A DNA stretch of 64,000 nucleotides. Origin: Ignavibacteriota bacterium (GTDB lineage Bacteria; Bacteroidota; Ignavibacteria; UBA10030; CAVZMI01). The stretch spans positions 1 to 64,000 of the forward strand of contig CAVZMI010000025.1 of NCBI GenBank assembly GCA_963776275.1, given 5' to 3'. A model generated the notes under the pieces. That model was not told the origin of the DNA. It made no database searches and saw nothing but the letters and a program-made list of their open reading frames with translations. The first letter of the stretch is position 1. Every line of letters starts with the position of its first letter. Shown one piece after another: positions 10,069 to 10,611 of the stretch. A program made the position numbers and the translations under genes.

Positions 10069-10097
10069 TTGCTTTTTACATATCCGTTTAGTAGAAT
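10069..10097 (+). promoter_or_regulatory. sigma70-type promoter of an orphan structured transcript
   Basis: TTGCTT-17 nt-TAGAAT. Confidence 0.65.
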
Positions 10098-10460
10098 GTC
10101 GGTGCAAAGCGCCGATAAATACTATCGATGTGAGAGTAATCACATAAGAGGGGTAGAAGCCCTTTTACGTGACAATTGTCACATCATCTATTCATCGGAT
10201 GTTGTATATAGTAAGCGTGATAAGCGGAGAAGAGCCTCCACTCACACGGGGGTTACCTTCGAAAAAGAAAAAACATAAGGAGGGAAAAAAGAGAATCGTC
10301 GGTAAGGGGAGTCTTGGCTCCCAGAAATCCTTAAGTTGGTAAGGATGCCATTAGTAGGGCGTGACGATTCTCATCGATATCAAGTATGATAATCGAATGA
10401 TGTGTGAGTTTGCCAAGGTTTTAATTCTTCAGCATCCGCATCCACATTAATTGTAAGGGG
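10098..10460 (+). ncRNA. Candidate structured ncRNA or long structured 5' leader, family unknown
   Basis: Dense hairpins, including the 10-bp closing helix GAGAATCGTC(10291)/GACGATTCTC(10363) around three inner stems; lies between a promoter and a terminator. Confidence 0.5.
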
Positions 10461-10466
10461 GTCAAT

Positions 10467-10535
10467 ATGAGACTGGGACCCATAGTTGGTATCGTGCTCC
10501 TCATCTGTATGATTTTCTATCTGGTCTCGACATAA
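10467..10535 (+). CDS. 22-aa hydrophobic small protein MRLGPIVGIVLLICMIFYLVST
   Basis: AAGGGGG SD 6 nt upstream; single transmembrane-like stretch; followed by a strong terminator. Below the ORF-track size cutoff. Confidence 0.5.
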   Translation: MRLGPIVGIVLLICMIFYLVST

Positions 10536-10563
10536 GTGTGTTGAGCGGTTGCAGATGGGGGAG

Positions 10564-10611
10564 AAGGCCCCGTTTGTCCCGTAATTCGGGACGAGCGGGG
10601 CCTTTTCGTTT
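10564..10611 (+). terminator. Rho-independent terminator
   Basis: AAGGCCCCG-TTTGTCCCG-taatt-CGGGACGAG-CGGGGCCTT followed by TTCGTTT. Confidence 0.85.

Follow-up and report, generated by a model that had tools for sequence, protein, structure and literature searches.

A conserved 22-codon open reading frame preceded by an operator-like palindrome pair and a genus-specific folded domain in an Ignavibacteriota genome

This report concerns a 543-nt interval (positions 10069–10611) in a 64-kb stretch of DNA from an Ignavibacteriota bacterium (contig CAVZMI010000025.1; the whole stretch is called the window below), which had been predicted from its letters alone to specify an orphan, highly structured non-coding RNA (ncRNA) or a regulatory leader. 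The 3′ quarter of the interval proved to be a conserved 22-codon open reading frame (ORF) that the prediction had overlooked, most of its first structural domain (domain 1) is better explained by DNA palindromes and its second (domain 2) has no relatives outside the genus among the genomes searched, so that the orphan ncRNA was not borne out, and the alternative wording of a regulatory leader fits the present findings. On balance, and with only a slight lean, we favour the reading that the interval is a small-protein gene together with its control region and a lineage-specific structured leader, and not a free-standing ncRNA. A regulator-controlled promoter region bearing two palindromic operators would then give rise to a messenger RNA (mRNA) whose 5′ leader would hold, in this genus only, a multibranch domain of about 175 nt (10236–10412) that would act in cis on mRNA stability or on access to the ribosome-binding site; the 22-residue membrane peptide would be translated from this mRNA and transcription would end at 10561–10607.

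Three genomes are referred to by label: G000 is the window's own genome (3.7 Mb), G001 is a near-identical genome of the same genus (g1) and G002 belongs to another genus of the same family (f1). When the 543-nt interval was compared by BLAST with 40 relatives, matches were obtained in two genomes only, G001 and G002, and the G002 match was limited to query positions 399–461, which is exactly the ORF (10467–10535, plus strand, 22 codons and a stop, ATG…TAA). The encoded peptide, MRLGPIVGIVLLICMIFYLVST, and its G002 counterpart, MKLGPLLGIVLLICIIFYLVAS, are of the same length and identical at 16 of 22 residues. A Shine–Dalgarno (SD) sequence, AAGGGGG (10455–10461), ends 5 nt before the ATG and is represented in G002 by GGGAGGTGG at the same place; in both genomes the ORF is followed by a terminator, which in the window begins 25 nt after the stop. 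The 66 coding nucleotides differ at 16 positions, split 6/1/9 over codon positions 1, 2 and 3; six codon changes are synonymous and six are conservative (R/K, I/L, V/L, M/I, S/A and T/S). The two other frames across this region carry stops or differ, and the leader DNA upstream of the ORF cannot be aligned between G000 and G002. Frame, length and amino acids have thus been kept between two independent lineages through synonymous and conservative changes, a pattern that, as far as sequence can tell, is the signature of selection on the protein. The ORF is below the cut-off of every gene caller, but no other element of the interval is as well conserved.

Agreement between G000 and G001 was given no weight in this argument. 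Their divergence is low throughout a block at 9967–11366 (6 mismatches, compared with about 5%, or roughly 10 per 200 nt, in the flanks), and as this block takes in the receiver gene and most of yjbQ as well as the intergenic region, near-identity over the predicted RNA is not evidence of constraint on it; the block looks more like a recent recombination tract than the result of constraint specific to an RNA.

Half of the peptide's residues are Ile, Leu or Val, and it would form one hydrophobic helix. From its composition the product would be a single-pass membrane peptide, with Arg/Lys at the N terminus on the inside, a hydrophobic stretch of about 17 residues and a polar end of Ser/Thr/Ala. 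The ORF of G002 lies within a natural extended frame of 52 codons, and comparison of that frame with proteins of 28–91 amino acids gave no homologue candidate. As regards translation, the 3′ part of the SD region (GGGUC, 10459–10463) is predicted to pair with GACCC in codons 4–5 (10477–10481) with a probability of 0.6–0.97 whichever 5′ end is assumed, and the AUG stays open; the ribosome-binding site would therefore be half-buried in a small local hairpin with codons 4–5, and in the models the long leader adds no obvious clamp on it. A table in the available part of PMC10783764 gives a value of 32 for Ignavibacteria under the anti-SD sequence CCUCCUUU, which we read as moderate use of SD sequences in this class.

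The terminator had been described as strong in the original prediction and this was confirmed: an intrinsic terminator (10561–10619, plus strand) has a G+C-rich stem of 20–21 bp at 10561–10607 followed by a T-rich tail. Three G–U pairs in the stem fit the plus strand only. In G002 a terminator occupies the same place, its upper stem different in sequence and the base of the stem conserved with one double change from G–C to A–U. A 12-nt block, GATGGGGGAGAA, lying just 5′ of and entering the terminator stem (window 10553–10569; about 2575–2591 of the G002 locus record L035), is shared without change by the two genera, which otherwise differ over the 3′ region.

The gene order peptide ORF, terminator, receiver, yjbQ (UPF0047) and GWxTD is the same in G000 and G002. 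A profile built from the two peptides gave credible matches in only three of the 277 genomes of the order, all of them in family f1; the next-best match (E = 1.2e-4, in G273) was dismissed as chance, being an 11-residue match antisense inside a 539-aa ORF. Pattern searches of contigs from species-representative genomes returned 112 matches, two of which were confirmed (the G001 and G002 loci); metagenome contigs gave 527 with one confirmed, identical to the G001 locus, and viral contigs gave 448 with none confirmed for the peptide. The species-representative loci that carry the peptide gene are labelled as Bacteroidota and Ignavibacteriota metagenome-assembled genomes. When 30 yjbQ loci were compared, four of the 27 outside the family were found to keep the receiver–yjbQ arrangement, and in these four long ORFs abut the receiver gene and no small hydrophobic ORF with an SD sequence lies upstream. 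From these distribution searches the peptide gene and the long intergenic region are therefore a family-specific addition. No second copy was found in the genome, and the gene is single-copy.

Upstream of the ORF the only other conserved elements are the half-sites of two 16-bp palindromes, TGTGA-GAGTAA-TCACA (10129–10144) and CGTGA-CAATTG-TCACA (10168–10183), whose centres are 39 bp apart and each of which is a candidate operator for a dimeric DNA-binding protein. The second contains the perfect palindrome GTGACAATTGTCAC (starting at 10169) that had been placed in domain 1. Nowhere else in the 3.7-Mb genome is TGTGA-N6-TCACA matched perfectly (10/10) as it is by the first, and although a scan of the window gave six palindrome matches against 2.09 expected, only these two keep both GTGA and TCAC. 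The 590-nt intergenic region of G002 has exactly two sites that match at least seven of the eight core positions, AGTGA-GAAATA-TCACA and AGTGC-GATTTG-TCACA, and these too are 39 bp apart, an arrangement that arose in one of 20,000 dinucleotide shuffles. In an ungapped alignment of G000 and G002 anchored on the palindromes, identity reaches 0.6–0.65 at the sites only and is 0.15–0.35 elsewhere. Since the half-sites are kept, the spacers are free to vary and the spacing is fixed, we take these elements to be operator sites on DNA, probably for a dimeric helix–turn–helix regulator, rather than RNA stems; RNA hairpins would be expected to covary, and those of G002 would have only 4 bp.

The consensus for CRP/FNR operators is TGTGA-N6-TCACA, which the palindrome motif equals. 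The likeness extends, on present comparisons, to the conserved GTGA/TCAC half-sites kept between species, the variable 6-bp spacers, the position of the two 16-bp sites in a probable promoter region and the presence in the genome of one CRP-family gene, on another contig, for a 227-aa protein with cNMP_binding and HTH_Crp_2 domains. Unlike a typical CRP/FNR system, there is no regulon-like enrichment, the candidate regulator gene is unlinked and it has no proper site upstream, a palindrome found there having been rejected because its spacing is off by one. Allowing one mismatch at most, the tandem-palindrome pattern was found in 27 of the 277 genomes of the order, compared with one for a reversed control; the 24 matches outside the family were put down to chance, being scattered and at roughly the rate expected from base composition (about 0.04 per genome), and were judged from the look of the sequence to be coding DNA. 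The tandem pair thus appears to show no wider regulon. A separate GTGA-N6-TCAC core was noted in G000 124 nt upstream of a 231-aa ORF (520–1212 of its locus, contig C23, minus strand) that matches no more of class II ribonucleotide reductase than its N-terminal parts (Ribonuc_red_2_N and positions 1–58 of the barrel domain) and is possibly a truncated or split gene.

Promoter assignments in this region are less firm. The promoter of the original prediction, TTGCTT-17-TAGAAT (10069–10097, plus strand; hexamers at 10069 and 10092), is present as to both motifs and the 17-nt spacer and lies just upstream of the start of the strongly folding region, but it matches the consensus at only 8 of 12 positions and is a weak candidate that fell under the 9/12 threshold of our scan, a level at which 3.0 sites already turn up by chance in shuffles of the 1.1-kb region; G002 shows no counterpart at an equal distance from its palindromes. 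As the palindromes would be operators, and would lie in or just beside the promoter, transcription may start near 10217 rather than at 10104. A TATATA at 10205–10210 (plus strand), 29.5 bp from the centre of the second palindrome, would serve as the −10 element for such a start, and a TATACT lies 26.5 bp from the proximal palindrome of G002. Further downstream, GTGACG-18-TATGAT (10361–10390, plus strand) matches at 9 of 12 positions and overlaps a third, weaker palindrome match (7/8) at 10361; if this promoter is the one used, transcription would begin near 10397 and leave out the four-way junction described below. In G002 the distal palindrome overlaps a 10/12 promoter-like site (1750–1778, plus strand, in the locus record L003) that faces the other way from the peptide gene, in the direction of a divergent AraC-family gene (772–1983, minus strand, in record L035) whose 404-aa product is hydrophobic in its N-terminal part; the window is without such a divergent gene.

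That the region folds unusually well, as had been predicted, was upheld against dinucleotide shuffles, the reference for all folding z-scores given here. For 10100–10611 the minimum free energy (MFE) is −196.1 kcal/mol compared with −142.9 ± 6.7 for shuffles (z = −7.99), and none of 100 shuffles was as good. A sliding scan resolved three blocks, at 10050–10250 (z about −5), at 10250–10400 (z = −5.7) and at the terminator (z about −8), and found 9800–10100 and 10300–10550 unremarkable; 320 control windows, each of 150 nt and taken across the 64 kb, gave a mean z of −0.21 (standard deviation 1.23) and a minimum of −4.24. The minus strand is equally stable (z = −8.18 overall) and folding energy therefore leaves the strand undecided; the plus strand is indicated only by the ORF and by the terminator, whose three G–U pairs become A–C mismatches on the other strand. 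The claim that the element lacks a known RNA family was also sustained. Nothing in the region passes Rfam gathering thresholds, and what appears at E ≤ 10 in 9800–10750 is below threshold and was taken for noise: the best match, at 29 bits where 45 are required, is to a viral element without relation to this region and lies on the minus strand, and the other 11 have E values of at least 0.1. ARAGORN found no tRNA or transfer-messenger RNA genes in 9900–10700 despite the cloverleaf-like four-way junction.

All of the stem motifs named in the original prediction are where it had placed them, on the plus strand, but they are not all paired as proposed. In domain 1 the closing motifs TACTAT and ATAGTA lie at 10120 and 10208, ATGTGA at 10128 and TCACAT at both 10140 and 10179, and AGAGGG and CCCTTT at 10147 and 10160; the last pair forms a hairpin between the palindromes (10147–10165) that includes one G–U pair and is not conserved in G002. 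The local hairpins proposed for this domain are present as motifs but not in the MFE structure, which instead pairs ATGTGA with the distal TCACAT (10179), that is, the left half of the first palindrome with the right half of the second. The two palindromes are alike, and this resemblance is the source of much of the folding signal in the 10050–10250 block.

Domain 2 (10236–10412, plus strand) is predicted to form a multibranch fold closed by ACUCACAC/GUGUGAGU (MFE −58.7 kcal/mol, z = −5.04; 46 Watson–Crick and four G–U pairs) and containing a CCUUC/GGAGG hairpin with an A-rich loop, a four-way junction and a UCGAUAUCA/UGAUAAUCGA hairpin. The junction (10291–10372, plus strand) has a 10-bp closing stem, with the motifs GAGAATCGTC (10291) and GACGATTCTC (10363), and three hairpins, and within it lie GGGAG/CTCCC (10307/10318), ATCCTTA/TAAGGAT (10327/10340) and the loops TCTTGG (10312) and AGTTGG (10334), with TATCA/TGATA (10378/10387) and GATGTG/CGCATC (10399/10437) further on. 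Folded as 10288–10375, the junction has an MFE structure identical to its centroid (−36.1 kcal/mol, z = −5.79, ensemble frequency 0.29). None of 200 shuffles matched either the domain or the junction, and both lie beyond the background minimum of −4.24. A pairing seen by eye between CUUGG (10313–10317) and CCAAG (10413–10417) was judged to be within chance. A near-perfect SD-like sequence, AAGGAGGG, was noted in the A-rich stretch at 10278–10285 with no start codon in reach, and the MFE structure pairs it with CCUUC.

This domain is confined to one genus. BLAST of the 367-nt leader against the 277 genomes of the order found G000 and G001 only, as did a covariance model of domain 2 in 101 relatives, where the best other match had E = 0.0027 per genome, not a significant value when 101 genomes are searched. 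The copies in G000 and G001 are identical, leaving no variation to score for covariation. Domain 2 has no match in plasmid or phage collections and no second copy in the genome, and on both counts the idea of a mobile element was rejected. The proximal palindrome and the ATG are separated by 298 nt in the window and by 163 nt in G002, so that about 135 nt are extra in the former. As domain 2 is absent from G002, the structure is not required for the peptide gene and is not its conserved companion.

Several observations weigh against the reading of the interval as a small-protein gene with a control region and a structured leader. Only two independent lineages lie behind the conservation, since the G001 and metagenome loci hardly differ from the window, and the peptide matches no Pfam or NCBIfam model. 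On the side of the control region, cores of the palindrome type show no genome-wide enrichment (40 compared with 54 expected), nothing links the CRP-family protein to the palindromes and no other regulator is linked to them, and the candidate transcription starts number three. As to the leader, the upstream region of G002 shows no exceptional folding (z from −2.5 to +0.5) and lacks domain 2, and this domain could be untranscribed or functionless DNA.

The last point can be put as an explanation in its own right, in which domain 2 is a lineage-specific insertion of nested inverted repeats and a peptide gene with a short leader is driven from 10361–10390. The extra 135 nt or so in this genus, the 9/12 match of GTGACG-18-TATGAT and the equal folding of both strands would all agree with it, as would the predominance of Watson–Crick pairs in the stems (46 of 50), as in young inverted repeats. 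As, however, the segment is single-copy, has no further copy in the genome or in the other collections searched (the 277 genomes of the order, plasmids and phages) and is not a recognisable mobile repeat, and as four helices nested in one junction would be an unusual accident, we consider this explanation improbable. To much the same degree we doubt that domain 2 is a true structured RNA, either acting in trans or binding a ligand or protein as part of a dual-function transcript (riboregulator plus small ORF), or serving as a cis-acting sensor of a new kind, akin to a riboswitch or thermosensor. In its favour, the four-way junction stands out in folding energy, has a well-defined structure and matches no known family, and dual-function small RNAs (sRNAs) encoding proteins of under 50 amino acids are described as an established class in the available text of PMC12310071; set against this are the lack of conservation beyond one genus, the invariance of the two copies, which leaves every pair without support from covariation, the equally good folding of the minus strand and the lack of any ligand or target that could be inferred.

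A toxin-like module of type I, in which a membrane-damaging peptide is encoded by an mRNA kept translationally inert by its folded 5′ leader until processed and is opposed by an antisense or partly complementary sRNA as antitoxin, strikes us as unlikely, though slightly less so than the two preceding explanations. The peptide is small and hydrophobic (under 60 amino acids), the ORF occupies the 3′ end of a predicted transcript that is long and folds strongly, and its SD sequence is partly paired, all of which agrees with the general description of type I loci and their inert primary transcripts in the accessible parts of PMC3919570, PMC5066626 and PMC4147584; the SD-like AAGGAGG at 10278–10285 could even be a ribosome standby site. 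Yet no antitoxin candidate was found, there being no direct repeat of at least 11 nt that would mark a divergent complementary sRNA (a sequence scan alone, which cannot exclude an sRNA), and on the minus strand there are promoter-like sites of chance quality only and no terminator. Moreover, the gene is single-copy and sits in a synteny conserved across two genera rather than having a patchy distribution, and the folded leader is missing from G002. The more specific proposal that the four-way-junction leader is an RNA switch or processing signal gating translation of a membrane-active 22-residue peptide, in a type I toxin-like or otherwise riboregulated module, is in our estimation a long shot of similar standing. 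Far less probable than any of these is a leader-peptide attenuator, in which translation of the 22 codons would control the terminator at 10561–10607 and so read-through into receiver–yjbQ–GWxTD. ORF, terminator and genes do follow one another on the same strand in both genera, half of the residues are branched-chain, and the MFE structure pairs codons 11–15 (10499–10509) with 10550–10560, just before the terminator; that pairing has, however, no counterpart in G002 on inspection, conservation at Gly-Pro, Cys and Phe-Tyr speaks for a peptide with a function and not for a leader that counts codons, the downstream genes are unlinked to branched-chain amino acids and the four other syntenic loci, where long ORFs abut the receiver, have no such element.

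The same features allow comparison with described systems. Leader-peptide attenuators are known in the trp, ilv and leu type, and the interval resembles them in having a short ORF and then an intrinsic terminator upstream of co-oriented genes; it differs in showing no conserved alternative in the form of an antiterminator, in the conservation of the peptide sequence and in its downstream genes, which probably have a promoter of their own and are unrelated to amino-acid supply. Dual-function small RNAs include RNAIII with delta-haemolysin and SgrS with SgrT. The predicted transcript of roughly 0.5 kb, highly structured and with a peptide ORF within the range of 20–45 codons, is like the members of that class as outlined in the parts of PMC12310071 to hand, but nothing points to a function by base pairing, and conservation is lacking in the structured part. 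The type I toxin mRNAs zorO, dinQ and tisB, as far as they are treated in the available portions of PMC3919570, PMC5066626 and PMC4147584, share the hydrophobic peptide at the 3′ end and the long folded 5′ untranslated region; in contrast to them, no antitoxin RNA was detected here, the gene occurs once and keeps its synteny from genus to genus, and the conservation of the ORF does not extend to the folded leader.

The favoured small-protein gene can also be set beside the unannotated small membrane proteins of bacteria, with a single helix and under 50 amino acids, that are reviewed in PMC10730256 and PMC11848123. It shares with them a very short ORF below annotation cut-offs and one hydrophobic helix, has its own SD sequence and terminator and is conserved as protein and not as DNA. 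It differs in belonging to no Pfam or NCBIfam family, in occurring in a single family of an Ignavibacteria-type order (three of 277 genomes) and in having no known partner protein. Among the matches listed in literature searches, none on small proteins or sRNAs named Ignavibacteria and none reported a type I system in this group, which is not proof of absence. What is new is modest: an apparently family-restricted and unannotated gene for a putative small membrane protein, the conserved operator-like palindrome pair and a genus-specific, thermodynamically exceptional leader domain. The peptide gene and the operator-like pair give a concrete handle (regulator, inducing signal and peptide partner) in a poorly studied, uncultured lineage, and domain 2, if truly transcribed and functional, would be a young, genus-specific cis-regulatory RNA useful for studying the origin of such elements. 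A striking ‘orphan RNA’ can hide an unannotated micro-gene, and small ORFs and DNA-level palindromes are worth checking before an ncRNA is called.

Some features of the surroundings may be recorded. The only Rfam matches in the window to pass gathering thresholds are two tRNAs away from the interval, one complete (43799–43872, plus strand) and one cut by the window edge (1–59, minus strand). For two large, adjacent ORFs upstream, 6307–7782 and 7789–9822 (491 and 677 aa), Pfam gives nothing at E ≤ 0.001, and as the second is separated from the structured region by no predicted terminator, read-through from it into the peptide gene is possible. Downstream, the GWxTD-domain gene (11526–12917) also matches, below threshold, the Por secretion C-terminal sorting domain and overlaps by 37 nt the start of the next ORF (12881–13960), which encodes a family 9 glycosyltransferase.

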